Shown: positions 1,873 through 64,000, counted from the first letter of the stretch. The stretch: DNA of 64,000 nt from Omnitrophica bacterium GWA2_41_15 (GCA_919902675.1 CAKKRH010000007.1:12942-76941), one strand, 5' to 3'. Program-made: numbers and translations. The notes: a model not told the origin generated them from the sequence alone.

Positions 1873-3135
1873 TTATTTCTTATCCAGGCCAAATTTATGA
1901 TGCAGGGCCCTGAGGGCGGTCTCGGCGGATTTCTTCTTAATGATACAAGAGATGCTTATCTCGGAGGTAGAAATCATCTCAATATTTATCTTTTCCTCAG
2001 CCAGGGTTTCAAACATTTTAGCGGCTACCCCGGAATGAGTTTTCATCCCTACCCCGACTATGGAAATCCTGGCGATATCCGAATCCTCCAACACCTGAAG
2101 CTCTCCCAAACCGCTGGCCAGAGGGCCGTGGTTGGGCTTCCCGCAGCCCAAGCCGCTGGCCGCCTTTTTGGTCAGCTTGATTGCCTTAGCTCCGTCACTT
2201 TTAGGGACGGTGAAAGAAATATCGGTCTGCTTGGTATGCGAAACATTCTGCACAATCATATCCACATTGATGCCGCCCTCTGAAAGCTGAGTGAAAATCC
2301 TGGCGGCGATACCGGGCTTATCCGGGACATCGCACACAGTAATCTTAGACTCATTCTTATTTAAGGTTACCCCGGTAACCAAAACATCTTCCATATTCTT
2401 TACCTCCCTGATAATCATTGTCCCGCGTTTTCGCGAAAATGAGGACCTGACATGTATGGGTACATCAAATTTTTTAGCCACTTCAATTGAGCGCGCCTGC
2501 ATTACCTGCGCGCCAAGAGAGGCCATCTCCAACATCTCATCATAAGTGATGTTTTCAAGTTTACGCGCCATGGGCTCAACACGCGGATCAGCGGTAAATA
2601 TCCCCTCAACATCGGTATAGATCTCGCACTCATCAGCCTCCAGGGTCTTAGCCAGGGCCACCGCGCTTAAATCCGAGCCCCCTCTTCCCAGGGTGGTAAT
2701 ATCCTGCTCCGGGGTCATCCCCTGGAAACCGGCGACAATCACAATCCTGCCTTTTTTTAATTCCTGGCGCAGTTTCTGAGCCTCGATTTTGACAATCCGC
2801 GCCTTGGTGTGCACGGTATCAGTAATAATGCCTACCTGCGAACCGGTTAGGGAAATTGCCTCAGCGCCCAACTCCTGAATGGCCATAGCCAGAAGGGCGA
2901 CTGAAATCTGCTCCCCGGTAGAAAGCAGCATATCCATCTCCCTTTCCGGAGGATTGTCTGAAATCTTAGCGGCCAGCTCAATTAACTCATCAGTAGTATC
3001 TCCCAGGGCCGAGACCACCACCACCAGATCATTGCCTTTTTTCTTATAGTTAACCACCCGGCGAGCCACATTCTTGATTCTTTCAGGATTGGCTACCGAA
3101 GAACCGCCGTATTTCTGCACAATTAACCTTCCCAC
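1873..3135 (-). CDS. lysC: aspartate kinase
   Basis: 420-aa ORF. VQKYGGSSVANPERI and GRGGSDLSAVALA are kinase motifs, followed by two C-terminal ACT-like repeats. Confidence 0.9.
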   Translation of the reverse strand: MGRLIVQKYGGSSVANPERIKNVARRVVNYKKKGNDLVVVVSALGDTTDELIELAAKISDNPPEREMDMLLSTGEQISVALLAMAIQELGAEAISLTGSQVGIITDTVHTKARIVKIEAQKLRQELKKGRIVIVAGFQGMTPEQDITTLGRGGSDLSAVALAKTLEADECEIYTDVEGIFTADPRVEPMARKLENITYDEMLEMASLGAQVMQARSIEVAKKFDVPIHVRSSFSRKRGTMIIREVKNMEDVLVTGVTLNKNESKITVCDVPDKPGIAARIFTQLSEGGINVDMIVQNVSHTKQTDISFTVPKSDGAKAIKLTKKAASGLGCGKPNHGPLASGLGELQVLEDSDIARISIVGVGMKTHSGVAAKMFETLAEEKINIEMISTSEISISCIIKKKSAETALRALHHKFGLDKK

Positions 3136-7559: not shown

Positions 7560-7570
7560 AGTTTTGTTTT

Positions 7571-7704
7571 AAACCCTAAACCTTAAACTCTAAATCCTAA
7601 ACAAATCTAAAAGCTAAAATCCTAAACCTATGTTTTGAGTTTTGAGTTTATGGTTTTGAGTTTTGAGTTTATGGTTTTGGGTTTGCTTAGAGTTTAGGAT
7701 TTAG
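7571..7704. repeat. long imperfect hairpin built from TAAA(C/T)CC / GG(A/G)TTTA words; member of a 2-copy family
   Basis: The left arm is rich in AAACCCTAAACC/CTAAATCCTAAAC; the right arm holds the complements (GTTTAGGATTTAG, TTAGAGTTT). The core at 7591-7628 matches 23234-23271 at 36/38. Confidence 0.7.
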
Positions 7705-8179: not shown

Positions 8180-8211
8180 AATTTCACCTCCGCAATGTTT
8201 TGCTTTATAAA

Positions 8212-8283
8212 CCTATCTTTACTGCTTTTCCTCTGTGAACTGTCAACTGTGAACTAAATTGGTCGGGGCGACAGGACTTGAAC
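8212..8283 (-). repeat. 72-bp duplicate of the tRNA-Pro(GGG) 3' end plus its 3' flank (copy 1; copy 2 is 8439-8510)
   Basis: 8212-8283 equals 8439-8510 with one mismatch. It includes TGGTCGGGGCGACAGGACTTGAAC, which is the CCA end, acceptor 3' strand and T-arm. Identity stops inside the T-loop. Confidence 0.85.
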
Positions 8284-8486
8284 TATTCATAGGGGGCCTT
8301 CCTGCCCCCTATGACGCTCCCCTAAAACCTTACGGTTTTAGGCTCGCTGTCACCCCCGTAGCGTAAACAAGGAAGCGTATCTTGGGGGGAAAATCATCTT
8401 TTCCCCCCAAACCCCCTTTTTGTTCAAGTCCTTACTGCCCTATCTTTACTGCTTTCCCTCTGTGAACTGTCAACTGTGAACTAAAT

Positions 8487-8564
8487 TGGTCGGGGCGACA
8501 GGACTTGAACCTGTGACCTCTTGAACCCCATTCAAGTGCTCTAGCCAAACTGAGCCACGCCCCG
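8487..8564 (-). tRNA. tRNA-Pro (anticodon GGG), CCA encoded
   Basis: Hand-folded 78-nt cloverleaf: CGGGGCG/CGCCCCG acceptor, GCTC/GAGC D-stem, CTTGA-ATGGGGT-TCAAG anticodon arm, ACAGG-TTCAAGT-CCTGT T-arm, then ACCA. Confidence 0.9.
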
Positions 8565-11210: not shown

Positions 11211-11489
11211 TTACGCCTCGCTCTTCTCCTGGGGAGTTTTTTCTTTATCCTGCTGGTTCATTTTAGATATGGCTTCCTGTATTTTCTTTTTGAGTTCATC
11301 GTCATTTTTTATCCCTACCGCGTTCATTCTGGTCCTGGATAAAAGCTCAGCCATATCCTGAAGAATCTGGGAACGCGAGAGATGTCTGCCGGTAGAAAAC
11401 ATCATATCCTTCTCCAATTTATCCAGGAATTCCAACTCCGCTCTGGTCAGGAAAGTTACCACCCTATGAGTACTCACATTTTTTTTCAT
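11211..11489 (-). CDS. small hypothetical protein, possibly ribbon-helix-helix-like
   Basis: The preferred start MKKNVSTHRVV... at 11489 has AGGAGG 5 nt upstream (the track starts at 11516). The pattern RVVTFLTRAELEFLDKLEKD resembles a beta-strand plus helix RHH N-terminus. This is weak inference only. Confidence 0.45.
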   Translation of the reverse strand: MKKNVSTHRVVTFLTRAELEFLDKLEKDMMFSTGRHLSRSQILQDMAELLSRTRMNAVGIKNDDELKKKIQEAISKMNQQDKEKTPQEKSEA

Positions 11490-11535
11490 TTTCTCCTCCT
11501 GAAGGATGACCCTCATTGGATGATACGATTACAGC

Positions 11536-11652
11536 TTTGATACATTCGGCGGCGTTCAAACCCCGCCCTTTAGGCGGGGAAAGGTTACGCCGCTCTCAGT
11601 ATCAATCCTGAGCAAACCACGGTCTTTAGACCGTGGTGTCGAAGGATTGATT
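11536..11652 (-). mobile_element. 117-bp structured repeat element, copy A (MITE/RPE-like), in the 5' leader of the 11489 gene
   Basis: Its reverse complement matches 36396-36513 with a single 1-nt indel. It holds two stem-internal loop-stem hairpins (TCAATCCT...AGGATTGA around ACCACGGTC-TTTA-GACCGTGGT, and GGCGGCGT...ACGCCGC around CCCCGCCC...GGCGGGG). At this locus it is flanked by the inverted repeat GATACGATTAC (11522-11532) / GTAATCGTATC (11659-11669). Confidence 0.75.
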
Positions 11653-11707
11653 AAAGCGGTAATCGTATCAAGAAAAACTTACCGTGGCTGGTAGGCTATA
11701 TTCAAAC

Positions 11708-11767
11708 AAAAAGCCCTTACGGACTTAGTTTTACCGAACCATAAGGCAAACCTTCCGTAAGGGCTTT
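11708..11767 (-). other. 15-bp perfect stem hairpin with a 30-nt loop in the riboswitch-controlled leader
   Basis: AAAAGCCCTTACGGA ... TCCGTAAGGGCTTTT. Confidence 0.6.
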
Positions 11768-11796
11768 TAAAAAATCTTCTTCCTTAAAACGGCAAT

Positions 11797-11830
11797 AAAA
11801 AAACCCTAAAGGCTGATTTTTTAGGGTTAA
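11797..11830 (-). terminator. intrinsic terminator, likely the expression platform of the c-di-GMP riboswitch
   Basis: Minus strand reads AACCCTAAA-AAATCAGCC-TTTAGGGTT followed by TTTTTTT, immediately 3' of the aptamer. Confidence 0.6.
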
Positions 11831-11840
11831 TTATTGCTTT

Positions 11841-11935
11841 CACCCTTTGGTAACCCCGCTACCCCCTAACCTATGGTCAAGGGACCGGAAGCTTTGCGTC
11901 TTATCCTTACGGATAATTTGCCTTTTTCAAATGGT
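11841..11935 (-). promoter_or_regulatory. c-di-GMP-I (GEMM-I) riboswitch aptamer
   Basis: Minus strand reads GGCAAA-UUAUCC-GUAA-GGAUAA-GACGCAAAGC-UUCCGG...GGGGGUAGCGGGGUUACCAAAGG. This matches the conserved GEMM-I core as I recall it from Vc2: GGCAAA, a GNRA-capped P2, ACGCAAAGC, CCGG, and GUAGCGGGGUUACC. Confidence 0.85.
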
Positions 11936-13837: not shown

Positions 13838-13913
13838 TTGTCTATTGCTCTATTGTCGATTGCTCAATTGCTCTGTGCGCTGTTATTAAAAATTTTATGT
13901 AACAGCGCACTAC
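13838..13913. repeat. direct repeat copy 1 (about 76-79 bp) containing an 11-bp perfect inverted repeat
   Basis: TTGTCTATTGCTCTATTGTCGATTGCTCAATTGCTCTGTGCGCTGTTATTAAAAATTTTATGTAACAGCGCACTAC. Arms are GTGCGCTGTTA / TAACAGCGCAC, separated by 14 nt. Confidence 0.8.
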
Positions 13914-13978: not shown

Positions 13979-14057
13979 TTGTCTATTGTTCTATTTGCTC
14001 GATTGCTCAATTGCTCTCTCGCGCTGTTATTAAAAATTTTATGTAACAGCGCACTAC
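13979..14057. repeat. direct repeat copy 2, abutting and overlapping the xerD-like stop codon
   Basis: Same sequence family as 13838-13913, with a few substitutions or indels in the ATTGCTC-word part. The core GCGCTGTTATTAAAAATTTTATGTAACAGCGCACTAC is identical. Confidence 0.8.
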
Positions 14058-19437: not shown

Positions 19438-19549
19438 TTAAAAGAAGCAACTCTTAATCCCACTGGTGGCGGGTTTTGTTTAAATCCTTTTCGCCTTACC
19501 TTTGTTGCTTTTCCTCTGTGAACTGTCAACCGTGAACTGTGAACTAATA

Positions 19550-19627
19550 TGGTCGGGGCGACAGGATTTGAACCTGTGGCCTCGTCGTCCCGAACGACGC
19601 GCTCTAGCCAAGCTGAGCCACGCCCCG
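19550..19627 (-). tRNA. tRNA-Pro (anticodon CGG), CCA encoded
   Basis: Hand-folded 78-nt cloverleaf: CGGGGCG acceptor, GCTC/GAGC D-stem, CGTCG-TTCGGGA-CGACG anticodon arm, ACAGG-TTCAAAT-CCTGT T-arm, then ACCA. Confidence 0.9.
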
Positions 19628-23211: not shown

Positions 23212-23324
23212 AAAAACCCCAAATACTAAACCATAAATCCTAAACAAGTCCAAAAGCTAAAATCCTAAACCCAAAACACATGTTTTGAGTTTGTTTAGAA
23301 TTTAGGGTTTCGAGTTTAGGGTTT
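23212..23324. repeat. second copy of the TAAATCC-word long hairpin element (ribH-nusB spacer)
   Basis: The core at 23234-23271 matches 7591-7628 at 36/38. The left arm AAACCCCAAATACTAAACC pairs imperfectly with the right arm GGTTTCGAGTTTAGGGTTT. Confidence 0.7.
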
Positions 23325-23341
23325 AAATGATATCCTTGTTA

Positions 23342-25107: not shown

Positions 25108-25204
25108 AAATAAAAATACCCCGTAATTAATCTCCCGGGGCATACACATTTTCGCGCTTTTGAGGCGCAGAATTATTCCGCGATTTTTAGCGCTTTCGCG
25201 GTTT

Positions 25205-25412
25205 CAATCTTCTCTCATCTAGACTTTAACTATCGGTACCGGATTCGCACCGGTTCCTGTCTCGCCGGTTTTGCTTTGCAAAACTGGCGGACTCGCGGAC
25301 TTTACCATGCGCCTTTTTCATATTCATGTTCTTATTCAAAAACTTGAAAAATTAAAAGGTGCGGAGCTCACCGCCGGTCGGGTATTCCACCCTGCCCTGA
25401 AGAATATTTTGA
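25205..25412 (-). promoter_or_regulatory. FMN riboswitch (RFN element)
   Basis: Minus strand reads TTCAGGGCAGGGTGGAATACCCGACCGGCGGTGAGCTCCGCAC ... GGAACCGGTGCGAATCCGGTACCGATAGTTAAAGTCTAGATGAGAGAAG. These are the conserved RFN 5' and 3' halves, upstream of ribBA. Confidence 0.9.
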
Positions 25413-35439: not shown

Positions 35440-36720
35440 ATGTTTTACGCCATACTCTTATTTATCTTTTACCGGCCCTTTATCTCTTCTTTGTCCTTCC
35501 CGGTTTTAAATTCAGCCTATTCCACCATCTTTCTGCTTTTTCTAATCATCTGGACTATCCTGAAACGCGAAGGCATACAAAAAAACCTCCCGGCAAAACT
35601 AAAGCCACCGCTCATACTCTTCATCCTGTCTCTTATTGTTTCAACCTTATTTTCTCAAAACAAAACCCATAGCCTCCAGGAATTCCCGCAATATCTCATC
35701 GGCCTACTGCTGTTTATGCTCCCGTTCTCATTATCGCCTAAAAACAAAAAGCTCGTCCTTTCAGCCATTATCCTTGCCGGATTAGGCATAAGCCTGCTGG
35801 CTATTTACCAGTATTTATTTGGCTTTGAATATATCCTTGATTATTTAGCCAAAGAAAACACTCCTTCCGCCGGCCTCATCACTTACCTTAGCCAAAGACG
35901 GGCCTTCCTGCCTTTTATCAGCCCAAATACCTTAGCCGGATACCTGATAATGATTATACCCCTAAGCCTGGCCTTTAAAAAGCGGATTTTCTTCATTTTA
36001 CCCCTGGGGCTAGCTTTATTACTCACCAAATCCTTAGGAGCGCTTTTTAGCCTATTCATAGGATCAATGCTATACTTTTACCTAAATAACCAAAAGGGCA
36101 GGCGGAAAATTGCCCTACTTTGCGGTTTCTCGGTGATTATCCTGCTGATTTTTCTTCTTCGCCAAAATAGCGGCTCTCAATTCAACCAACCCGGATTCTC
36201 ATTGCTAAGGCGCTGGGATTATTGGAAGGAAACTGTTGAAATTATAAAGCTTTTCCCCTTTTTGGGGGTGGGATTGGGGGCTCTACATCTCAGCCAGGTC
36301 AGATATGCCCACAACTGCTATTTGCAAATCTGGGCGGAGATGGGAATATTCGGAATCGCTTCTTTCTTTTGGTTGATAGCTGAAACCTATAGTTTAATCA
36401 ATCCTTCGACACCACGGTCTAAAGACCGTGGTTTGCTCAGGATTGATACTGAGAGCGGCGTAACCTTTCCCCGCCCTAAAGGGCGGGGTTTGAACGCCGC
36501 CGAATGTATCAAACGCGATTTTCTAAACAAAAAAAATATTTCTGTATTATCTGCCGCGATATTCACCTTTATCATCCATAATCTGGTTGATTTTACTTTT
36601 TCTCTGCCTGAAACAAGTTTCATCTGGTGGATAATCTTCGGTACCTACATCTCTCTCCATGAGCCTAAAACTACCGCAACATTTGTTGACGGCGGGGGTG
36701 TGCCCGTAACCCTCAGCTGA
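35440..36720 (+). CDS. O-antigen ligase/polymerase-family membrane protein (Wzy_C-like) carrying an in-frame repeat-element insertion
   Basis: Polytopic protein. YAHNCYLQIWAEMGIFG matches the O-antigen-ligase-domain core. The frame stays open through the 36396-36513 element, and TM-like sequence resumes after it (AAIFTFIIHNLVDFTFSLPETSFIWWIIFG). The track start at 35410 is a TTG. Confidence 0.7.
   Translation: MFYAILLFIFYRPFISSLSFPVLNSAYSTIFLLFLIIWTILKREGIQKNLPAKLKPPLILFILSLIVSTLFSQNKTHSLQEFPQYLIGLLLFMLPFSLSPKNKKLVLSAIILAGLGISLLAIYQYLFGFEYILDYLAKENTPSAGLITYLSQRRAFLPFISPNTLAGYLIMIIPLSLAFKKRIFFILPLGLALLLTKSLGALFSLFIGSMLYFYLNNQKGRRKIALLCGFSVIILLIFLLRQNSGSQFNQPGFSLLRRWDYWKETVEIIKLFPFLGVGLGALHLSQVRYAHNCYLQIWAEMGIFGIASFFWLIAETYSLINPSTPRSKDRGLLRIDTESGVTFPRPKGRGLNAAECIKRDFLNKKNISVLSAAIFTFIIHNLVDFTFSLPETSFIWWIIFGTYISLHEPKTTATFVDGGGVPVTLS
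36396..36513 (+). mobile_element. structured repeat element, copy B, inserted in frame in a coding sequence
   Basis: Near-identical (one 1-nt indel) to the reverse complement of 11536-11652. It is translated as about 39 residues, ...NPSTPRSKDRGLLRIDTESGVTFPRPKGRGLNAAECIK..., between hydrophobic segments. Confidence 0.75.
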
Positions 36721-49929: not shown

Positions 49930-50658
49930 TTACAGGCCGCCTATTTTCTTCCCGTCAATTATCGCGGAAGCCAAGACACGCGTCTCAGCAGAAATTTCCA
50001 TCTCTTTATCTTTAGCGCTTTCGGTAGTAATGCGAACTTCTTTTACTTTACCCACGCCCCGAGCAAGCCAAAAAATGCGATTTTCTTTTCCATGGCTCTC
50101 CGTATTTGCCCAATCAACATCAAGAGAGAATTTTAAACAATCAGAAAATTTTCCCGCAGGCACCGCGACATCCTCGGCTGATACAAGCTTTATCTGAACA
50201 TTTACCCTGAAATCTCCTATTTTTTTATTATCAAATGCGCTAATTACAAGATTGGTAGAATAATTTACACTTCCTCCAATTTCAATATTTCCTGGCACCT
50301 CTATATTTGGCGGATCAAATATTCTATAATTCTCATCTTCCATATCGACTGTTTTATATTTCTTTACACCTTCCGAATCGAAAGCAAAACACTCATATTC
50401 GTAGTCTATGGAATTTAATCCGGAATATAATTTTACGGTATTTGTCCCAGATATTATTTCTTCGCCATTAATCCTTAAGGTTTCTTCACTGCCTCCGCCT
50501 TCTTTTGTTGCGTATGTCCAAGTATTTCCTTGATGTAAAGGATAAAACTCTTCTGTTATATTAGCGGCTAAAGCAAAATTGGCAGGCATAATTAACATCA
50601 TTATTAAAAAGAGGGTGATATGTTTCACGTTTGCCTGAAAAAATATCTTTTCTTCCAT
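49930..50658 (-). CDS. secreted beta-rich hypothetical protein
   Basis: The preferred start is MEEKIFFQANVKHITLFLIMMLIMPANFALA (signal peptide). The mature part begins EEFYPLHQGNTWTY. No family recognised. The track start at 50724 overlaps the upstream gene. Confidence 0.5.
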   Translation of the reverse strand: MEEKIFFQANVKHITLFLIMMLIMPANFALAANITEEFYPLHQGNTWTYATKEGGGSEETLRINGEEIISGTNTVKLYSGLNSIDYEYECFAFDSEGVKKYKTVDMEDENYRIFDPPNIEVPGNIEIGGSVNYSTNLVISAFDNKKIGDFRVNVQIKLVSAEDVAVPAGKFSDCLKFSLDVDWANTESHGKENRIFWLARGVGKVKEVRITTESAKDKEMEISAETRVLASAIIDGKKIGGL

Positions 50659-50684
50659 TTTTTCCTCCCGCGTAAGTAACGAAG

Positions 50685-51410
50685 TTAGACAAAAAACCCA
50701 TGCCGAAGCTTGTGCCATGACCAAAGCATTTCAACAACTTTTGCTCTAAACGAACTAAAACTTGCTCCCGTAGGCTTACCTTTCTTGCGAGGATAATGCC
50801 TCACCTCTATCTCTTTAACAAGATATCCTTTTTTCAAAGCTTTTATCAACATTTCAGCGTTAATAAATCCTCCCGTACTTTCTAATTGCAATTCATCAAG
50901 CACCGACTTCTTAATCAGTTTGAAACCACAGGTTATATCTTTTATATTTATTTTAAACAATAGGCAAATTAAGAAATTATATAATTTCCCAACCAAAGCT
51001 CTATATAATTGGTCATGGCGAACTGCTCGCTTGCCAATGATAATGTCAAAATTATCTATGTGCGGGACAAACTTGTGCAAATCGGAGATAAGGAATTGTC
51101 CATCCGCGTCCATAAAAAACACCGAAGGATATTTTGAGCTCCTGAAACCACTTAACAACGCTCCGCCATATCCTATATTTCTTGGCAAACAAATCACTTT
51201 TAGGCGCGGAAAGACACAAGACAATCTCTCTATGGCATTACTGCTCTGATCTTCACTTCCATCGTCCACCACAATCACTTCGTAATTCTTAGCCATATTC
51301 GGGATAAAATTCATTACCGATTGGACAATATATTCTATATTGTCCTCTTCATTATATACTGGCAAAACTACAGATATTCCTTTTTCTGCGCTATTCATAC
51401 ATATTTCCAC
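50685..51410 (-). CDS. family 2 glycosyltransferase, polyprenyl-phosphate sugar synthase-like (soluble form)
   Basis: ISVVLPVYNEEDNI...YEVIVVDDGSEDQS...FFMDADGQ are GT2/DPM1-like motifs. No C-terminal TM. Confidence 0.8.
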   Translation of the reverse strand: MEICMNSAEKGISVVLPVYNEEDNIEYIVQSVMNFIPNMAKNYEVIVVDDGSEDQSSNAIERLSCVFPRLKVICLPRNIGYGGALLSGFRSSKYPSVFFMDADGQFLISDLHKFVPHIDNFDIIIGKRAVRHDQLYRALVGKLYNFLICLLFKINIKDITCGFKLIKKSVLDELQLESTGGFINAEMLIKALKKGYLVKEIEVRHYPRKKGKPTGASFSSFRAKVVEMLWSWHKLRHGFFV

Positions 51411-51420
51411 GTTCTGATTT

Positions 51421-52656
51421 TCAGCGTGCGTCCTTATATGCGCTTAAAACCACAGCTATTTTTAATTTCTTTGCAATGTATATTAAATTATTCCTTGATA
51501 ATGAAGGATAATTAGGCATCCCTAAGACTTCATTAAATGCTTTTAAGGCCTCCGGATAAACTCTCTTTTCACCATAGAGAAATGGGCAATATCTCGCCAG
51601 ATTTTCATTAGTATCAATTCCATTTATTAATAATCGCCACATGAGCCTCTTTTTATCTTTGCTTCTCACTACATAACTATAAGCCACGGGTGAAACATTT
51701 ACTTGTAATTTATAATAGCCTCTATTATCACTATCGCAAAAATCATCGATTAATGCACTATTCTCTATTCGCTTCCTATTGTTGATATCAACAATCCCTA
51801 TCTGCTTTAACCCAAATAATGCCTGCAAATTGGATAATTTTGTTATAGATTTTTTACCTATAAACATTTTCTTAATTGTCATGCTATACACTGTTGACAG
51901 ATTTATTCCTATAACTTTTAATATTATAAGACACGGAAAAACAAACAAGCTAAAGAATAACGGCCTGGTAACAAAATAAAGAAAATATGATATACAGATA
52001 TTTTTTATTAAGTCAATCCTTGTGATTGAAGGCAAATATTTTATTCTTTTTTTTATTTTATCTGCTAATAATGGATCGTTAGTAGCAATCATTCCTCCAC
52101 CAAAAGTATTAAAATGTTTTACCGTGGCAAAGCTAAAATAGGATGCTCTCCCGAAAGAACCAACTTTCCGACTCTTATACAGCGCTCCAATGGAATGAGC
52201 GCAATCTTCTAAAACAATAAGATCATATTTCTTAGATATAGATAATATTGATTCAATATCACAAGGCCTGCCGAATAAATGCGTTGCGATGATTACTTTC
52301 GTTCTTACGGTTATACTTTCCTCTATTTTTTGTATATTAATATTGTAATCAATTGGGTTCACATCAACGAAAACCGGCATGAATCCGCATTCAACGATAG
52401 TCTGCAAAACACTTTCATCGGTAAAAGCGGGGATTACTATCTCCGATCCATTATCCAAAGAAAGCGCTTCCAATATTATCTTTAAACCCACCCTGCCGGA
52501 TGAGACAGAATTTGCAAACTTTACGCCAATATACCGCGCGAACTTTTTTTCGAATTCATCGACAAAATTTCCCTCTATCCATTTTCCTGTGAGAAGACTT
52601 AAAAAGATATCTATAAATTGGCCTTTATAAATAGTTATACTTCTTCTAGGGAACAT
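51421..52656 (-). CDS. DegT/DnrJ/EryC1/StrS-family sugar aminotransferase with an unusual hydrophobic insertion
   Basis: GNFVDEFEKKFARYIG, IATHLFGRPCD, EDCAHSIG and FSFATVKHFNTFGGG (PLP Lys context) are present. The ATG at 52656 lies 1 nt after the upstream stop (the track starts at 52725). Confidence 0.75.
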   Translation of the reverse strand: MFPRRSITIYKGQFIDIFLSLLTGKWIEGNFVDEFEKKFARYIGVKFANSVSSGRVGLKIILEALSLDNGSEIVIPAFTDESVLQTIVECGFMPVFVDVNPIDYNINIQKIEESITVRTKVIIATHLFGRPCDIESILSISKKYDLIVLEDCAHSIGALYKSRKVGSFGRASYFSFATVKHFNTFGGGMIATNDPLLADKIKKRIKYLPSITRIDLIKNICISYFLYFVTRPLFFSLFVFPCLIILKVIGINLSTVYSMTIKKMFIGKKSITKLSNLQALFGLKQIGIVDINNRKRIENSALIDDFCDSDNRGYYKLQVNVSPVAYSYVVRSKDKKRLMWRLLINGIDTNENLARYCPFLYGEKRVYPEALKAFNEVLGMPNYPSLSRNNLIYIAKKLKIAVVLSAYKDAR

Positions 52657-52657
52657 C

Positions 52658-53725
52658 TTAAACCTCGCAGCTCTTATAACAAATTCCCATAAAACGCCGA
52701 ATCGCTGAAATAAAAGATCCGACATCCAAAGAACCGATTAAATTTAACTCTACAGCGCTATGAGTCCAACAAGACCGGCATTGAGATACTTCTGAGTCAG
52801 AATTATTCTCCAAATGCTCAAGCTTTCTTACCCGTTGTCTTTCTTTATTTAATCCCCATCCGCACGCATACATGCTTCCATTAGTTTCCATTCTAAACAT
52901 AATTTTCCCGGCTAAACACGACAGCTTCCTCTCTTCCGGAAAGCTATACAAATGTTTGAGATTGGCGATTGAATTTAGAATAAATCTGTTACCGCTAAGC
53001 TTTTTGTTAATTAAATATGCGATAATTTCCTTATAAGTTCGCTCGATGGGAGATAAATGATTAATCTCTCTGGAACCTAAACAGCACAAAGAAGCCGGCT
53101 GAAAACCTATTTCTATCTTATAATCTTCAGCTAAAGCAAGTAAAAAATCAATATATTTAAAATCTGAATTCAATTTTGAAATCACTGTTGTCAGCGAAAC
53201 CGGGACATTCTTATTCTTTGCTATTTCTACGGCTGTAATGGTTGATTTAAAAGCGCCCTTTCCTCTCAAGGCATCATTAATTCCTTCAGGGCCGTCTAAA
53301 CTTAAATTCAACCTACTTATACTGCGCAAACAATCAATCTTATCTTTCAATAAAATTCCATTTGTATTTAAGCTATTGATTAAGCCTCTTTCGCTTGAAT
53401 GGTCAAGGATGCGTCCTATGTCATCTCTCAATAAAGGCTCTCCTCCCGTAAAGCTGATATACCTCGTTCCGCGCGAATAGAGCTTATCGATGATATTACA
53501 CACTTCAGAAGTATTTAATTCCCTACCACTAATCTTCCACACATGACAATTAGCGCAATGCAAATTGCATCTGGTTGTTAACCTCCAGCTAATAAACAAA
53601 GGATATGCAATATTTAAAAACTTGAACTTTAATAAAGCCACCAAAAGGTTATCTTTTAATAGCTTTTTATACACCTTACCCATTTTACCCCTTGCTTGAT
53701 TGCGGTTAAAGTCAATGCGCGCCAT
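52658..53725 (-). CDS. radical SAM enzyme with Cys-rich C-terminal (SPASM/twitch-like) region, paralog A
   Basis: It has CNLHCANC (CX3CX2C), ISFTGGEPLL and LSLDGPEGINDALRGKGAF. The C-terminus carries LSCLAGK...NGSMYACGW...CRSCW. Confidence 0.8.
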   Translation of the reverse strand: MARIDFNRNQARGKMGKVYKKLLKDNLLVALLKFKFLNIAYPLFISWRLTTRCNLHCANCHVWKISGRELNTSEVCNIIDKLYSRGTRYISFTGGEPLLRDDIGRILDHSSERGLINSLNTNGILLKDKIDCLRSISRLNLSLDGPEGINDALRGKGAFKSTITAVEIAKNKNVPVSLTTVISKLNSDFKYIDFLLALAEDYKIEIGFQPASLCCLGSREINHLSPIERTYKEIIAYLINKKLSGNRFILNSIANLKHLYSFPEERKLSCLAGKIMFRMETNGSMYACGWGLNKERQRVRKLEHLENNSDSEVSQCRSCWTHSAVELNLIGSLDVGSFISAIRRFMGICYKSCEV

Positions 53726-53752
53726 CCGTTAAATATTACAAACCTATCAATA

Positions 53753-54967
53753 TTATAAGACTGATAATCGCATTAAAGCTTCGTTATATACTTCATCAAC
53801 AGTTATCGCACTTACGCATTTATTATCCTTACATGCAGACTTTCTGTAATTATATGCAGATATGCAAGGACTGCAGATAAATTGTTTATAGAATATCTTG
53901 CTTTTCATGCTCAGTGGCTTGTAAAGTAATGGTGTTTCGGGACCGAACAAAACAATTATTTCTATTGCCGTAAGGCTGGCCAAATGCACCGCTCCGCTAT
54001 CATGACTTATAAGAAGATTTGATATATGAAATAAGCCTAAAAGCTCTTTAATGGTTATTTTTCCCACAAGATGAATACACTGGGGATGCGGCACTGCTTT
54101 CTCAATTAACGCTATATCCCGCTGACGAATGTTATTACCTATAGTAATAACAAAAATGTTGGGAACGCTAAGAAAACGATTCGCCAATTGTATATAGCTG
54201 TCGAACGGCCATCTGCGTATTGGCAAAACATCATTAATACAGGGATGCACTAAGATTATTTTGGAATCCCTTTCTATTTGTTTATTATAGTTCCTTAATT
54301 TTAACCACATCGCATTCTCTCTTTCTTTATTTACTTTTACTTGAAGAGAAAAAAACTCATTACTCATCAAGAACTCTTTTAGAAAGGGTTCATGTGAATG
54401 CGCCTTTAGCGCCTGCGCAAGCGCTAAAAAGTTGTTACTCATATGCATATAATGATTGTAGTTTACTTTGTGTGTAAGTAAATTCCCCCGATAAGGGTTT
54501 TTTGCTGAAAAACCATAAAAACCCACCCTAACCCTTGCGCCGGATAAATAACTGAGAAAACTGCTAAACCTTGAGAAGAGCTCAAAATCAATAATAACGT
54601 CAATCCTTTCTTTACGAATCCTCCATACATTCTTTATTATATCAATACATAAACAAAGAAAATTATCCTCTCGCATAGCAATGACATTCTCTTCTGGGAA
54701 TATACCCAAAATTGGCACGATATCCTTATTTTTATTAAAAATCCATAAATAAAGCTTACTATGTGGAAATAATGCTTGCACTTTTTTCATTGCAGGGTAT
54801 CCCAGGATAACGCTGCCTATCTCTGAAAGTTCTAAAAATAATATATTTTTAGGATCGCCGTTCGCGTGAGAGCAGAAAATGCTTTTTAGCGTATTTAAAA
54901 GAGACAGCGCCATGCAAAGAGGTATCCCGAGCCAAAAATCAATCCTCCTTGCGATGGTAATATTCAT
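53753..54967 (-). CDS. family 9 glycosyltransferase (heptosyltransferase-like)
   Basis: LFLELSEIGSVILGYPAMKK is the N-domain. The C-domain ISHDSGAVHLASL...LFGPE matches the GT9 D(S/T)GxxH(L/I)A motif. Confidence 0.7.
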   Translation of the reverse strand: MNITIARRIDFWLGIPLCMALSLLNTLKSIFCSHANGDPKNILFLELSEIGSVILGYPAMKKVQALFPHSKLYLWIFNKNKDIVPILGIFPEENVIAMREDNFLCLCIDIIKNVWRIRKERIDVIIDFELFSRFSSFLSYLSGARVRVGFYGFSAKNPYRGNLLTHKVNYNHYMHMSNNFLALAQALKAHSHEPFLKEFLMSNEFFSLQVKVNKERENAMWLKLRNYNKQIERDSKIILVHPCINDVLPIRRWPFDSYIQLANRFLSVPNIFVITIGNNIRQRDIALIEKAVPHPQCIHLVGKITIKELLGLFHISNLLISHDSGAVHLASLTAIEIIVLFGPETPLLYKPLSMKSKIFYKQFICSPCISAYNYRKSACKDNKCVSAITVDEVYNEALMRLSVL

Positions 54968-55035
54968 CTAAAGTTATGCCATTTACACATGCGCCAAAGA
55001 ACCTTATCTTACGCAAAAACATCTTTACGAAAAAA

Positions 55036-56445
55036 TTAGTCTTTAACCATGCATGACGTAATATGGTTCATTAAAATGCTTAAGCCGTTCCGAAGCTTGC
55101 TTCTTAAATCTGATAAATTATGCAGACAATATATTCTCTCCATAAAATAAGCGGGCCTAAGGTAAAAAGAGCGTATTGCTTCCTGCCTTAAAGACCAAAT
55201 TTCGGCGCGATTAAGATGCTTTGTTTCAATTGTCGGATAGCTAATGCCGCTATCCATGAAACACAAACTATCCTCTACCATTGAATTCTCGATTAGCTTC
55301 TTTCTCAGTTCAGTGCCGTACGATGGAGTAAAAATATTAAACGAGGCATAATCGCAACCTATCTGTATGGAAAATTGAATAGTTTTTTTAATCATTTCTT
55401 TATTATCTCCTGGCAACCCAATGATAAATGTACCGACAGTATCAATACCAAACCGTTTGCACAAGGAAAACACTTCTTTAGTTTTTTGTAAATCTAACTT
55501 TCTGTTAAAATTTGATAGCAATTCCTGGCTTAATATTTCTACCCCGAAAATAATAGTGTGGCAACCCGCCTTTTTCATTGTTAAAAGTAATTCTTCATCC
55601 ATTATATCTGTTCGACTAAAACATATCCAACCAATATTAATATTATTATTTATGATTTCCTCGCAAAGAAGAAAGGCTCTTTGCCTGTCCGCAGCAAATG
55701 TTTGGTCCTTAAAGACAATTTCATGTATCTTAATATCCTTAATAAATTTGATTTCCTCCATTACCCCGCTTATTTCTCTTTTTTTATATCCAAAACGATT
55801 AACTACACAATAGCTGCATTTAAAAGGACAACCAAAATCTGTCATAACTGTAGCGAACCGCCTGCGCCTTGCGAAAGGAAACCCGTAGTTTCTATTTTTA
55901 AATAAATCATGGCGCGGAGTCGGAATTGAGAATACACCTGAAGCATGTAATTCTCTCCTCATTACGATATTTTCCTTATCTTTAAAAATAATGTTAAAGT
56001 ACGCGGAATCCTTTTTCTTAATGAACGACACGATGTCATTCGTGGTAAAATCTAAAAGGATGGCATCCATGAAACTATTATTCTCAAGCAATTCTTTCCC
56101 GTAATCTATAAAAATATCCCCTATCCCAACCATTAAACATTTTATTTTTGATTTAATCTTCCATAGAAAAGGCATGTCGCTTCCTAGAGACACAGCCCCT
56201 GAAAGAAATATAATTACCTCAGGATTAATTTTTATTATTCTCTTGAGAGATTCACTACTGTTTAATTTTTCCGTAATACAATCAATAATAAAAATATTAA
56301 AGTGCGCGGATAAAATTCCACTTAATATAATAAAATCTATCGGATGATAGCAATAAGAGGCTTTGGAAATTTTACTGCAATAATAATCCCTCATAAACAA
56401 ACTCCTGCCGGGCGGATTCAACAAAAGAACTTTTATTCTATTCAC
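55036..56445 (-). CDS. B12-binding-domain radical SAM enzyme (class B)
   Basis: It has an N-terminal Rossmann-like cobalamin-binding region (KVLLLNPP...IIFLSG...MVGIGDIF), followed by CPFKCSYC and a radical SAM core. Confidence 0.8.
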   Translation of the reverse strand: MNRIKVLLLNPPGRSLFMRDYYCSKISKASYCYHPIDFIILSGILSAHFNIFIIDCITEKLNSSESLKRIIKINPEVIIFLSGAVSLGSDMPFLWKIKSKIKCLMVGIGDIFIDYGKELLENNSFMDAILLDFTTNDIVSFIKKKDSAYFNIIFKDKENIVMRRELHASGVFSIPTPRHDLFKNRNYGFPFARRRRFATVMTDFGCPFKCSYCVVNRFGYKKREISGVMEEIKFIKDIKIHEIVFKDQTFAADRQRAFLLCEEIINNNINIGWICFSRTDIMDEELLLTMKKAGCHTIIFGVEILSQELLSNFNRKLDLQKTKEVFSLCKRFGIDTVGTFIIGLPGDNKEMIKKTIQFSIQIGCDYASFNIFTPSYGTELRKKLIENSMVEDSLCFMDSGISYPTIETKHLNRAEIWSLRQEAIRSFYLRPAYFMERIYCLHNLSDLRSKLRNGLSILMNHITSCMVKD

Positions 56446-56449
56446 TGCG

Positions 56450-57280
56450 TTAGCTCGAGATTAAATTCTTATCACATTGAAAATACCTATCCATCATTAT
56501 AATTATCCCAAAAAAAGATACAATTAAAAAACCTAAAAATTTGCTCATTAAAATACACTCTCCCGATAGCAAACAGAAGCCTAAAATATATAACAGCAAT
56601 AATATTCCTCTTGAAGGCTTGAAAAGAAAAGACAAAATCAATATTTTTATCAAGCTAATGAATCCAGATTTAACTGAAACTTTACTACCCTTACGCGAAT
56701 AAACATTGACAGGAACGAACTTTATTCTATGCATATTAAATATAAACAATACTGTACTAGTTGTGGTAAAAGAAAAAGTATCGGGAAGAAGGTCCAGGTA
56801 TTTTAAAATAATGCTTTTTTTATAAATTCTTAAGCCGGAATTTATATCTGGTATCTTAAAACCAACCGCAATATCAGCAAAAATATTTAATATGCGCCTC
56901 CCCGCGTTTTTCCACGAATAGAGATCAGTTCTCCCAACCCTTTTTCCCACAACCATATCAAAGGAATCAATATACCGCAACAGCGACTTAATATCCTTCA
57001 CATCATGCTCCCCATCCGCGTCTATTGATATAATTATATTATTTTTAGCGAGCTTAATCCCTGATTTCAGCGCCGCTCCATATCCCTTATTAATATGATG
57101 CTGGATAACCTTAACGTTAAAACCTTTAATTTTATTTATAGTGTCATCCGTTGAACCATCATTAATAACAATAATCTCCGAATCATAATAATTTTCCTGA
57201 ATATCAAGTAAAACTTTTTGAAGGGATGGTCCCTCATTATAAACAGGTATTATAATCGTAATTTCTTCGACTGTTATCAT
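56450..57280 (-). CDS. family 2 glycosyltransferase with C-terminal TM helices (GtrB/ArnC-like polyprenyl-phosphate glycosyltransferase)
   Basis: ITIIIPVYNEGPSL...SEIIVINDGSTDDT...ISIDADGEHD are present. Two predicted C-terminal TM segments (ILILSFLF...LLLLYILGFCLL; FLGFLIVSFFGIIIMM) follow. Confidence 0.75.
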   Translation of the reverse strand: MITVEEITIIIPVYNEGPSLQKVLLDIQENYYDSEIIVINDGSTDDTINKIKGFNVKVIQHHINKGYGAALKSGIKLAKNNIIISIDADGEHDVKDIKSLLRYIDSFDMVVGKRVGRTDLYSWKNAGRRILNIFADIAVGFKIPDINSGLRIYKKSIILKYLDLLPDTFSFTTTSTVLFIFNMHRIKFVPVNVYSRKGSKVSVKSGFISLIKILILSFLFKPSRGILLLLYILGFCLLSGECILMSKFLGFLIVSFFGIIIMMDRYFQCDKNLISS

Positions 57281-58079
57281 AATTTTGATTAAAGAAAATA
57301 TTCCGTATTGAATTAAATTTAAAATCTTTTAATAAATTATTCAAATAAATTCTTGTTGCCGATGAACGAAAACTACTTTTAAATTCATTCAAAAAAGATA
57401 AACGCGGTCTGTCTATTTTACCTCGAACTAATTCCCACGGATGGATATAAACAAGCACTCTTTTACTCTTTTCATTCTTATGCCTCATAAGATAATTTGT
57501 AAGAAAATAAGGATACGCTCTCAAAAAAAAACCGCCGGCGAATGGTATTGAGATATTTAAAACAGTAAATGATGACCGTGGAATTTCAATCAAGCCGGAC
57601 GGAATTCTATATTTATTTTTTTTAAAGAAGCCCTCCGTCATGCTTGAATCATACAAGAAACCTAAATCTTGTAATATTTCTAAAGCCCAAAAACATGAGA
57701 GATCTAATGACCAATTAGGCGCTCTATACCCAAGTATTTTCATTCCCGATAAGTCCTCAAGCAATTTTTTCGAATATTCAACTTCTTTTCTAAATTCTAA
57801 AGGCTTTTGGCGAAAAATTAAGTTGTGGTAATAACCATGCAAAGCAATTTCATGGCCATCAACCTTCAATAAATTTATTATCTCTGGATGGCGACGGACA
57901 TTATAGGCAAGAATAAAAAATGTTGCCCTTGTGTTAATTTTCTTTAGAACACCTAATATTTCTAAAAGAGATTCTATTAATTGGCTTTTTCTTGCATCCC
58001 AGGAAAAAATGCTTATCTTCGAATTATACGATAAAGTCTGATACCAATCTTCAACATCGATTGTTAAGATATTGCGCAT
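57237..58079 (-). CDS. polysaccharide deacetylase (NodB-homology) family protein
   Basis: The N-terminus MRNILTIDVEDWYQ and HEIALHGYYH are typical of the DUF3473-associated deacetylase subfamily. It overlaps the next gene by 44 nt. Confidence 0.75.
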   Translation of the reverse strand: MRNILTIDVEDWYQTLSYNSKISIFSWDARKSQLIESLLEILGVLKKINTRATFFILAYNVRRHPEIINLLKVDGHEIALHGYYHNLIFRQKPLEFRKEVEYSKKLLEDLSGMKILGYRAPNWSLDLSCFWALEILQDLGFLYDSSMTEGFFKKNKYRIPSGLIEIPRSSFTVLNISIPFAGGFFLRAYPYFLTNYLMRHKNEKSKRVLVYIHPWELVRGKIDRPRLSFLNEFKSSFRSSATRIYLNNLLKDFKFNSIRNIFFNQNYDNSRRNYDYNTCL

Positions 58080-58101
58080 ATAATATACTATTCAAAAAAA
58101 C

Positions 58102-59808
58102 CTATAAGCATTCACCCATATTTTGAATAAGATGCTTACAATTAATAATGATAAAATCATCATTCTCGTAGACTTTGTATTCTTGCGAAATATTTAACAT
58201 AATAAAGTTATTTCCAGTATTTTCTGAAAGAATATGTATTATCTTAGTATTAAAAGGCTCAAAGTAAAAATCTTTTTTGTATAAATATTTCTTTTCGAAA
58301 TGCCCCTTCTTCACTACAAGATAGTCGATGCGATATCTTCTGCAAATATTCACTGCTTCATCTATTGAGTTTGAATAATACAGCCTGAAAAAATCATGCG
58401 TTCTTCTACTCACCATCAGGTAGTAATTCTTGTAAAAAGGATGCGACAATTCTTCTTGCACAAAAACTTTTCTCTTTGAATATAACGGAATTTCATTCGC
58501 GTCACTTGGATGCGCAGCCAAAAGAGAATCTTTAGGAAGGGTGGACAGAAATTTATAAAGGTCTTTATTTCTAAAAGTGCAAAGGTCGCCATTCAGAAAT
58601 GGTAAAAATATAATAATTATAGATAGAGTTACTATAAACAACCTAAAAAAAGTTTTATAATTAAATTTCTCTATAACGTACCTATTTATAATTAATGCGG
58701 ACATGAAAATCGAATAGATTGGCAAAGAAAATTTTAAATACCGGCCCGGGTAAAAAAGTTTGAACAATAATAACCAAGATAAAACATACATCATTAAACT
58801 TGCGATCAAGAAAATGCTCAATATTAAATTAACCCTGATTTTATTTTTTAATATAAAAATTAATCCGCAAAATAAATTACCTATTAAAAACCAGGTCAAA
58901 AAATTATCTATAGGCATCCCAATCATTCTAGCCATGACATCTCGCTCAGTAAATATCCTATGCCAATTAACAAGAAAGGGGACCCTCCCGTCACTAAAAA
59001 ACTCTGGCATGGTAATAATGTCTTTAAAACTTACTAAGGGGCCCATGAAATTGTCACTCTTTATGTATAAAAAATACAGCACGATAGAGCCTATCATAGA
59101 TAGGCAACAGAGATAGCTTCTCTTATAAAAATTTTCTTCTTCAAGCTTCACCTTACCGAAAGAATTCTTAATGTTCCGCGCTATTAACACTATCAAGGTC
59201 AATATTGATATAAGCGCTACCGGAGGATAAAATAAAACCTGAAAAATAAGTATTATGCCCAGCAATACATAAGACCTCTTGATAAGATAATATATGAAAG
59301 ATAAGACCAGTGGAAAAGCAAAAGCTCGCGGATTTCCTCCCGAAAAATAAGTAAAAGTCCATGAATAAAGTATAAATATATTTGATGCCAAAAATCCCAC
59401 TGATATAGAATATAAAGCATTACCAATAAGAAAAACATAAATAGCTGATAGGCAGCAAAGAATAAATGGTAATATTTTTGTAAGGGCTAACGGGTCAAAA
59501 AAGATGCCAAACAAACTATATACAAAAATAGTTCCCGCGGTGTTATGCTTCATAGCATATTCGGCAAAGATATCATTCTGAAAAAGACTGGGATCTTTTA
59601 TCGCATAAAAAGGAAAGATATATTGATTAACATCATCATTAATAGTATATCTATCAAATAAGGCATCTTTTTGACAAATAAATGTTATGATCAGAGAAAT
59701 TGCGCCAATGACAGCAACATATTTTTTCCGCATCTTTCGAGTTTTTTGTGAATAATTTAGTGTATTTTTAAGCATTCTTGATAATTGTTTAGTCTTAGCA
59801 TAAAACAA
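58102..59808 (-). CDS. large polytopic membrane protein, candidate GT-C-type glycosyltransferase
   Basis: 568 aa with more than 10 hydrophobic segments. The first extracytoplasmic loop carries acidic NDD...DPSLFQND, and a soluble C-terminal domain follows. Family not recognised; the call rests on architecture and context. Confidence 0.4.
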   Translation of the reverse strand: MFYAKTKQLSRMLKNTLNYSQKTRKMRKKYVAVIGAISLIITFICQKDALFDRYTINDDVNQYIFPFYAIKDPSLFQNDIFAEYAMKHNTAGTIFVYSLFGIFFDPLALTKILPFILCCLSAIYVFLIGNALYSISVGFLASNIFILYSWTFTYFSGGNPRAFAFPLVLSFIYYLIKRSYVLLGIILIFQVLFYPPVALISILTLIVLIARNIKNSFGKVKLEEENFYKRSYLCCLSMIGSIVLYFLYIKSDNFMGPLVSFKDIITMPEFFSDGRVPFLVNWHRIFTERDVMARMIGMPIDNFLTWFLIGNLFCGLIFILKNKIRVNLILSIFLIASLMMYVLSWLLLFKLFYPGRYLKFSLPIYSIFMSALIINRYVIEKFNYKTFFRLFIVTLSIIIIFLPFLNGDLCTFRNKDLYKFLSTLPKDSLLAAHPSDANEIPLYSKRKVFVQEELSHPFYKNYYLMVSRRTHDFFRLYYSNSIDEAVNICRRYRIDYLVVKKGHFEKKYLYKKDFYFEPFNTKIIHILSENTGNNFIMLNISQEYKVYENDDFIIINCKHLIQNMGECL

Positions 59809-59903
59809 AAATGTTTACTACTTGGTTAAATTCTGAGAATAATATTTCGGTGTCCATGTATGGCGAAGCGCTGTCACATGTTCCGCTTTTTATCTCTGAA
59901 AAC

Positions 59904-61724: not shown

Positions 61725-61743
61725 ACGCTGCGCAATAAGTATC

Positions 61744-62883: not shown

Positions 62884-62904
62884 CGTCGCGCGCGTACGAT
62901 AGTC

Positions 62905-63927: not shown

Positions 63928-64000
63928 ACTCTAATATGAATTTAAAACCCGTAACCCTTGAATTCTAAACAATGTTAAAGTGGTTCATAGCTTAACGCAT

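Follow-up and report, generated by a model that had tools for sequence, protein, structure and literature searches.

What kind of genetic unit is the strongly structured repeat that occurs twice in a stretch of Omnitrophica bacterium GWA2_41_15 DNA (GCA_919902675.1 CAKKRH010000007.1:12942-76941)? The whole stretch of 64,000 nt is called the window here. Its source is a groundwater metagenome (Hainich aquifer samples), and the organism is an uncultured Omnitrophota bacterium, as judged by how close homologues are named in public sources. The original prediction, made from the DNA letters alone, considered the repeat recently mobile or spread by gene conversion and offered two identities, a MITE (a miniature transposable element with inverted repeats) or a functional RNA module. 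Our analysis indicated that the repeat is probably a non-autonomous transposable element of the IS200/IS605 family, of the same type as the palindrome-associated transposable elements (PATEs) of Haloquadratum walsbyi and other IS200/IS605-derived miniature elements (Dyall-Smith et al. 2011, PMC3119063). It was placed there because its target is a fixed TTGAT, its copies have one orientation toward this target, it has no terminal inverted repeats, and its subterminal hairpins are accompanied by guide tetranucleotides.

The two window copies were named copy A and copy B. As predicted, they are near-identical reverse complements (11536-11655 on the plus strand vs 36393-36513), and the sole difference is one extra G in copy B, located in the apical part of one hairpin (CCCTTTAGGCGGGG vs CCCTTTAGGGCGGGG). 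The mobile unit itself is 110 nt in copy A and 111 nt in copy B (Table 1). The further bases common to both copies, TTTGAT and TAAA, are target-site sequence and lie outside the mobile unit. Neither of the diagnostic 20/21-mers of the element was present in 100 shuffles of the window. Copy A was found in four independent assemblies of the same organism, including a 2.15-Mb contig (ENA ERZ1286166, contig_28), so an assembly artefact as the source of the repeat was ruled out. A covariance model built from 11 sequences scored copy A at 136 bits and copy B at 145 bits, and it detected no further copies in the window.

Copy B showed that the unit is an insertion. It lies in a gene for an O-antigen ligase-like (Wzy_C) membrane protein, and four orthologues of this protein (P0002, P0004, P0006, and P0008; 71-74% identity) lack exactly 37 residues that are present in the window protein. 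The insert, NPSTPRSK...AAECI, is placed between ...ETYSLI and (K/R)RDF..., and the C-terminal part beyond it is conserved. The orthologous DNA reads TTTAATCAGG or TTTGATAAAA, whereas the window reads TTTAATCAA, the element, and then ATCAAA, a net gain of 111 nt or 37 codons. Copy B is translated in frame as INPSTPRSKDRGLLRIDTESGVTFPRPKGRGLNAAECI, and a stretch that spans an insert junction in the protein is ...ETYSLINPSTPR...

Metagenome contigs were scanned with the left-end 21-mer. Among the 14 matches, 12 were true copies at unrelated sites, several of them from other Hainich wells, and two were chance matches. The covariance model, a check proposed with the original prediction, found four more copies in the collected loci, two of which belonged to the window subfamily. 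The census gave 16 copies in Omnitrophota-type metagenome contigs, 14 beyond the window pair. These 14 copies at unrelated sites and the absence of copy B from orthologous genes supported recent mobility. TTGAT was directly 5' of all 16 copies, and the base before it was variable. The first bases were AC in 16/16 copies, extending to ACATTC in 15/16 and to ACTTCG in the second L116 copy, and the complete copies (14/14) terminated with ...GG(A/G)TTGAT. All 16 copies had one orientation relative to the asymmetric TTGAT site. In the L094 subfamily, TTGAC was the flank at both copies. The target of the IS200/IS605 member ISDra2 has been determined experimentally and is TTGAT, with insertion 3' of it (PMC2806898).

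The anatomy of the element was analyzed by folding. The original prediction had described two similar modules per RNA, and the fold agreed with it; each module consists of an outer stem and an 8-bp GC-rich inner stem separated by an asymmetric internal loop, with a 4-nt loop closing the inner stem. Folding energies of the 148-nt copy A region were -75.6 kcal/mol (minus strand, z -9.8) and -77.8 kcal/mol (plus strand, z -9.1), compared with about -37 kcal/mol for shuffles. The term top strand is used here for the strand bearing the TTTA loops. On it, the intact inner hairpins are CCCCGCCC-TTTA-GGGCGGGG and CCACGGTC-TTTA-GACCGTGG, subterminal at both ends and on the same strand; copy A has lost one base of the otherwise perfect CCCCGCCC-TTTA-GGGCGGGG hairpin. 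One hairpin lies between TCAAA and AAAGG, and the other lies between GCAAA and TGTCG. The element ends, ACATTCGGCGG... and ...GAAGGATTGAT, have no terminal inverted repeats, with a weak CNTTCG resemblance at most. The terminal TTGAT at the right end is base-paired with an internal ATCAA in the right outer stem.

The stems covaried among the copies. In the alignment of the 11 sequences, standard pairs occupied 95.5% of the cells and both-sided changes occurred in 11/33 pairs; 0/500 shuffles reached either value. When the partner columns were slid, pairing decreased to 37-53%. Pairing and covariation thus support conserved hairpins and do not discriminate between a DNA and an RNA role. The top strand, antisense to both window transcripts, may be the folding strand, since it has 16 G-T vs 6 A-C pairs in the alignment. 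One inherited pair accounts for 7 of these 16, which makes the hint a weak one.

The ends were compared with those of IS608, in which the left cleavage site is located 19 nt 5' of the left hairpin foot, the right site is nearer and 3' of the right hairpin, and both sites are recognized through pairing with 4-nt guides immediately 5' of the two hairpin feet (PMC3201880). In the window element, the left inner hairpin starts exactly 19 nt after TTGAT, and 15 nt, the last five of which are TTGAT, follow the right inner hairpin. Both inner hairpins are immediately preceded by the tetranucleotide CAAA. The pairing scheme of IS608 was extended here to a 5-nt site, so that cleavage bases 1, 2, 3, and 5 pair with guide positions -2, -3, -4, and -1, respectively. 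This rule held at 16/18 ends of nine elements with six pentanucleotides. The guide was CAAA for the cleavage site TTGAT, CAAG for TTGAC, AAAA for TTTAT, GGAA for TCCAT, GAAA for TTCAT, and GAAG for TTCAC. The nine elements came from metagenome-assembled genomes (MAGs) labeled Omnitrophota, Candidatus Andersenbacteria, Myxococcales, and a gut lineage, and from unclassified metagenome contigs. Two of them are true insertion sequences; boundaries were set by comparing copies in different flanks. The one shared by L095 and L119 is 2193 nt long (98.6% identity) and carries Y1_Tnp, OrfB_IS605, and Cas12f1-like_TNB. The other, from L030, was compared with L019 and L042 and is a tnpB-only element. Between the L095 and L119 copies, the TTTA/TAAA loop is inverted (2634-2653 and 3006-3025, respectively). 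In two miniature copies (L106 and L116), both loops are flipped together.

The 20-mer of the right inner hairpin, CCACGGTCTTTAGACCGTGG, was found in 94 DNA stretches in a scan with one genome per species. The record labels were Ignavibacteria, Bacteroidetes, Acidobacteria-type taxa, Omnitrophota, Candidatus Andersenbacteria, Myxococcales, gut MAGs, and haloarchaea. In the L095/L119 and L030 insertion sequences, this 20-mer forms the left-end hairpin. It is also upstream of tnpB in Haladaptatus and Haloquadratum (remnants in Haloquadratum), and the haloarchaeal loci L049, L034, and L046 carry tnpB. L021 (Omnitrophota) and L094 (Andersenbacteria) contain the same two-module miniature element, with outer stems that are different and covarying.

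Two other arrangements of hairpins were observed. In MAGs of Ignavibacteria, Bacteroidota, and Acidobacteria (L007-L100, e.g., L013, L029, and L099), units resembling repetitive extragenic palindromic (REP) sequences have the form ..TAG-hairpin-~18 nt-GGGCTTTAGCCC; some of them follow tandem short repeats and many are at contig ends. In gut MAGs (L016-L019, L024, L025, L027, L032, L037, L042, and L081), many contigs are broken by a high-copy miniature element. Inverted copies of a single left end (TTTATAAGATACCCAGCC...) form both of its ends, yet both TTTA loops are on one strand.

The REP-like form of these units bears on which enzyme moves the window element. A domesticated REP-associated tyrosine transposase (RAYT), instead of an IS200/IS605 TnpA, could have spread it as a REP/REPIN-like element. 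RAYTs are likewise Y1 HUH enzymes recognizing hairpins, and the 20-mer hairpin does occur in many Ignavibacteria/Bacteroidota genomes within short REP-like units (..TAG-hairpin-N18-GGGCTTTAGCCC). REP, bacterial interspersed mosaic elements (BIMEs), and REPINs with their RAYTs also resemble the window element in being multi-copy, GC-rich hairpins with (probable) Y1 HUH recognition. However, there is no GTAG or CGTC head beside either hairpin, the 5' neighbors being TCAAA and GCAAA. The unit consists of two different hairpins in direct order, no inverted doublet, and forms a composite whose ends and target are defined. Copies are present within Wzy_C, Radical_SAM_N2, ROK, and Epimerase_2 coding sequences, so the element is not extragenic only. 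In both the 19-nt spacing and the guide/cleavage code, the ends agree with the IS608 type, and no RAYT was seen in any locus with an approximate query sequence. Spread by a RAYT is thus improbable.

Residence inside genes was not limited to copy B. The 111-nt unit is stop-free in three of six frames, and therefore coding insertions can survive as 37-residue in-frame additions. In a radical SAM protein (L114), the insert is at Radical_SAM_N2 profile position 129 of 151, and the bottom strand is read. The top strand is read in the other three cases: a ROK kinase (L111) with the insert at ROK profile position ~35, a UDP-GlcNAc 2-epimerase (L110) whose Epimerase_2 match spans the insert, and a LUD-domain protein (L106) with the element at the N-terminal edge, where it may be 5' of the true start. 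Protein-database matches added NifU-like, HisI-like, and hydrolase proteins as carriers. A protein-level scan was performed with three concatenated translated frames; its word pre-filter passed 14 candidates and 7 matches were obtained, but this number is not a census because known carriers such as P0001 were missed. The same transcribed orientation noted for the two window copies is correct for this pair (a minus-strand leader and a plus-strand ORF); it is no family property, since both orientations occur in host genes.

In two further Wzy_C orthologues, P0005 and P0010, a second site, located after NNQKGRK, carries different in-frame inserts, 40-44 residues long. One of the two has a ...SRESGNP... 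motif, and we suspect that this is a translated repeat element. If it is, in-frame repeat insertion may be common in the lineage.

These data also address whether the repeat works as a structured RNA, e.g., as a module for processing, protein binding, or stabilization that is kept sense to host transcripts. The very stable fold, the covarying stems, the common transcribed orientation of the window copies, and the position of copy A in a riboswitch-controlled leader all favor such a role. Yet the family occurs in both orientations, copies interrupt conserved domains within the coding sequence of unrelated enzymes, and copy B is missing from orthologues. An Rfam search of the whole window gave no match on the element at gathering thresholds; even at E<=10, the best overlapping match in the copy A region (11400-11800) scored 20.9 bits vs a threshold of 60. 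Both orientations together with absence from orthologues and Rfam argue against a dedicated RNA function. Covariation is equally expected of single-stranded DNA hairpins needed for transposition, and the G-T excess over A-C weakly favors the strand antisense to both window transcripts. An RNA function is very unlikely, and the RNA half of the original prediction was not upheld.

The MITE half held in part: the element is MITE-like in being mobile and is not of the classical inverted-repeat type. Two relatives have a left flank unequal to the right terminus, the second L112 copy (TTTAT vs TCCAT) and the L095 insertion sequence (TTCAT vs TTGAC); therefore, those elements made no target duplication. 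A classical MITE moved by a DDE transposase that duplicates 5 bp of target, with a strong preference for TTGAT, would explain why TTGAT on both sides of every complete copy resembles a 5-bp direct duplication, but it is extremely unlikely, given ends without terminal inverted repeats beyond the weak CNTTCG resemblance, an invariant flanking 5-mer, 16/16 copies in one orientation to an asymmetric target, related elements with non-identical flank and terminus, and a right TTGAT that pairs with internal ATCAA and covaries in L094 (GTCAA with TTGAC at flank and terminus). A CRISPR repeat (no array), an integron attC site (no cassettes and no R'/R'' motifs), and an intrinsic terminator (no T-run after the hairpins) were rejected.

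Several observations weigh against a PATE-type element of the IS200/IS605 family. No cognate tnpA with TTGAT/CAAA ends was found in Omnitrophota; for the source genome, this negative covers the window alone. In a search with the L095 TnpA, its single in-frame stop replaced by K, no Omnitrophota partner was recognizable among the 120 matches listed of 2,459 Y1_Tnp proteins; nearly all of these 120 were unnamed ENA/Logan metagenome proteins, and the sole named one was from a gut Firmicute genus. In the window subfamily, TTGAT is found at the left flank as well as at the right terminus, so an empty site alone fits no duplication and a 5-bp target duplication equally well. The guide register depends on the hairpin foot, which was chosen by homology at three ends (both ends of the second L112 copy and the right end of L095), and a one-base shift alters the guide. 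L021 fits the guide code poorly, at 3/5 and 4/5 positions, and haloarchaeal L034 and L049, whose boundaries are undefined, fitted it in no register tried. The loop sequence varies, with TTTA, TTCA, and TAAA all found. The 20-mer CCACGGTCTTTAGACCGTGG is a right-end hairpin in the window element and a left-end hairpin in tnpA/tnpB-carrying elements, so the window element is no simple internal deletion of the insertion sequences found. The window copies are oppositely oriented under a uniform GC skew, so at most one fits the family's lagging-strand-template bias, although two copies (n=2) are uninformative on replication bias.

Scans for intermediates and vehicles gave negative results. The predicted circle junction, ...AAGGATTGAT joined to ACATTCGGCGG..., was absent from all collected loci and viral contigs, and the hairpin 20-mer was absent from viral contigs. 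A plasmid collection contained two 30-nt chance-level matches and nothing else. By tblastn, no IS200/IS605 tnpA or tnpB was present in the window, as the original prediction had said of transposases in general. At L109 (413-529) and L118 (2912-3028), copies have a common right flank (TTAGTTGTGAAAGACTTATGAAAC...) and different left flanks, which suggests rearrangement or recombination at the element.

We propose the following mechanism for the PATE-type element. A Y1 (HUH) TnpA supplied in trans would bind both inner hairpins on the top strand, and the CAAA 5' of each hairpin foot would serve as the guide that base-pairs with TTGAT. Top-strand cuts by TnpA would fall after the left-flanking TTGAT and after the right-terminal TTGAT. 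A single-stranded circle would be released and reinserted 3' of another single-stranded TTGAT, without target duplication. Coding insertions would persist as 37-residue in-frame additions, like copy B in the Wzy_C gene, and leader insertions as stable hairpin structures, like copy A. The insertion, target rule, end anatomy, and guide complementarity were demonstrated, and the enzyme, a single-stranded intermediate, and activity at present are inferred.

The element and PATEs are both too short for a transposase, lack terminal inverted repeats, have palindromes near both termini and a 4-5-nt targeting sequence at the 5' end, and have a start-to-palindrome distance that is longer at the 5' end (here 19 nt) than at the 3' end (here 15 nt) (PMC3119063). 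A further link is that the hairpin 20-mer of the element is upstream of tnpB remnants in Haloquadratum. Unlike PATEs, the element resides in a bacterium of the phylum Omnitrophota, its two hairpins differ in stem sequence, and the hairpins are nested in outer stems, of which the right one pairs the terminal cleavage site with internal ATCAA. Several copies are in frame in genes, which is not described for PATEs in PMC3119063.

With ISDra2 of Deinococcus radiodurans the element shares the TTGAT target and insertion 3' of it, and with IS608 of Helicobacter pylori it shares the left site 19 nt 5' of the hairpin foot and the guide tetranucleotides 5' of the hairpins. The likeness is one of target and end architecture; those insertion sequences are 1.3-1.8 kb, whereas the element is 111 nt and has no tnpA or tnpB. 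In IS608 the two cleavage sites differ (TTAC and TCAA), whereas those of the element are identical. Rickettsia palindromic elements (RPEs), which Ogata and co-workers are said to have described in 2000, are reportedly short palindromic repeats of ~100-150 nt that lie in frame in genes and are translated. They resemble the element as short, palindromic, in-frame segments whose translation adds to a gene product without destroying the gene. We know of no transposition enzyme or fixed target established for RPEs, whereas the element has IS200/IS605-type ends and a TTGAT target; the two also differ in host phylum and are unrelated in sequence. What is unusual about the element is that it resides in frame in conserved enzymes and has nested outer stems.

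The site of copy A was also analyzed. The inverted repeat predicted to bracket it, GATACGATTAC / GTAATCGTATC, is real and unique to the site in the window, and it extends to 16 bp with one mismatch. When the empty site was reconstructed, GATACGATTACAGCTTTGAT joined to TAAAGCGGTAATCGTATC, it formed a 16-bp hairpin (-14.1 kcal/mol, z -9.7) with the insertion point in its 4-nt loop. A single-strand transposase needs an exposed single-stranded TTGAT, and a TTGAT exposed in the loop of the host hairpin would fit this need. Copy A is part of an operon transcript. On the minus strand, a promoter-like site (12002-11975) is followed by a cyclic di-GMP-I (c-di-GMP-I) riboswitch, a terminator-like hairpin (~11770-11705), the element, and a small open reading frame (ORF). 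Copy A would thus have landed in the loop of a pre-existing hairpin between the riboswitch terminator and the ORF. The promoter-like site is near-consensus. A 380-aa ORF (11034-9892), also downstream of the riboswitch, encodes a hydrophobic N-terminal segment and has 132-nt tandem repeats in the gene.

Table 1. Positions of the two element copies, their parts, and their host features in the 64,000-nt window
Feature	Position	Strand	Remarks
Copy A	11542-11651	+ (top strand)	One G lost from left-end hairpin; in 5' leader of minus-strand ORF
Target/left cleavage pentanucleotide TTGAT, copy A	11537-11541	+	Directly 5' of copy A; host sequence
Copy A left-end outer stem	11548-11594	+	GGCGGCGT / ACGCCGCT; encloses guide and inner hairpin; covaries (helix 1)
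Copy A left-end inner hairpin	11561-11579	+	CCCCGCC(C)TTTAGGCGGGG; guide CAAA 11557-11560; foot 19 nt from cleavage site
Copy A right-end module	11601-11651	+	Outer stem ATCAATCCT / AGGATTGAT holding terminal TTGAT (11647-11651); covaries (helices 4-6)
Copy A right-end inner hairpin	11617-11636	+	CCACGGTCTTTAGACCGTGG; guide CAAA 11613-11616
Host hairpin interrupted by copy A	11522-11669		Arms 11522-11538 and 11653-11669; arms unique in window
c-di-GMP-I riboswitch aptamer (GGC variant)	11845-11931	-	Rfam RF03167, 63.1 bits vs gathering score 59; same transcript, outside element
Host ORF downstream of copy A, 101 aa	11211-11516	-	Likelier start ATG 11489 after AGGAGG
Copy B	36397-36507	- (top strand = minus)	111 nt; in-frame 37-codon insertion in Wzy_C gene
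Copy B target TTGAT	36508-36512	-	Plus strand ATCAA, within codons ATC AAA
Copy B right-end inner hairpin	36412-36431	-	CCACGGTCTTTAGACCGTGG
Copy B left-end inner hairpin	36469-36488	-	CCCCGCCCTTTAGGGCGGGG, intact 8-bp form
Copy B host gene, O-antigen ligase-like (Wzy_C) membrane protein	35440-36720	+	Pfam Wzy_C E=4e-16; ATG 35440 matches orthologue starts

The window contains other repeats and structured elements. In a flavin mononucleotide (FMN) riboswitch (25203-25408 on the minus strand, 88 bits), two of the variable loops contain insertions of 66 and 22 nt, which are unusually long. Two minus-strand tRNA genes (8490-8564 and 19553-19627) are inside common repeats of ~105 and ~65 nt, and these tRNA-bearing repeats (8191-8564 and 19474-19627) include CTGTGAACTGTCAACTGTGAACT. 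Short T/G-rich repeat blocks (TTTTGAGTTT and AAACCCTAAACC) were observed at 7568-7684, 23214-23327, ~16035, and ~31782 and partly form a long-range inverted pair. A perfect 37-nt direct repeat (13877-13913 and 14021-14057) has its copies 144 nt apart, each of them a hairpin (GCGCTGTTA...TAACAGCGC). The GC content falls from ~45% to 31-35% over ~50000-64000, which could be an acquired region, and the GC skew is negative throughout the window, including this part.

A further possibility, which we regard as doubtful, is that the family is adapted to harmless residence in genes. Its length of 3n, three open frames, and Pro/Gly/Arg-rich, loop-like peptides could make it an IS200/IS605-derived counterpart of RPEs that supplies new protein segments in small Omnitrophota genomes. 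The outer stems might likewise be a new control layer, the right one sequestering the right cleavage site in a duplex and possibly gating excision. The modal length of 111 nt goes back to a single master copy and so is no independent evidence of selection.

The known mechanism of the IS200/IS605 family is unchanged by these findings. The table of guides and cleavage sites, which held at 16/18 ends, provides a simple way to recognize such elements from sequence and to predict their target. The 20-mer common to bacterial and haloarchaeal elements bears on the exchange or conservation of IS200/IS605 ends. For Omnitrophota, the results indicate that miniature derivatives of single-strand peel-and-paste elements occur in these bacteria and can persist inside conserved enzymes, where they are translated as inserts of 37 residues. 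They are thus a hidden source of variation in protein length. Such inserts affect how genes are called, domains annotated, and orthologues aligned in metagenome-assembled genomes.

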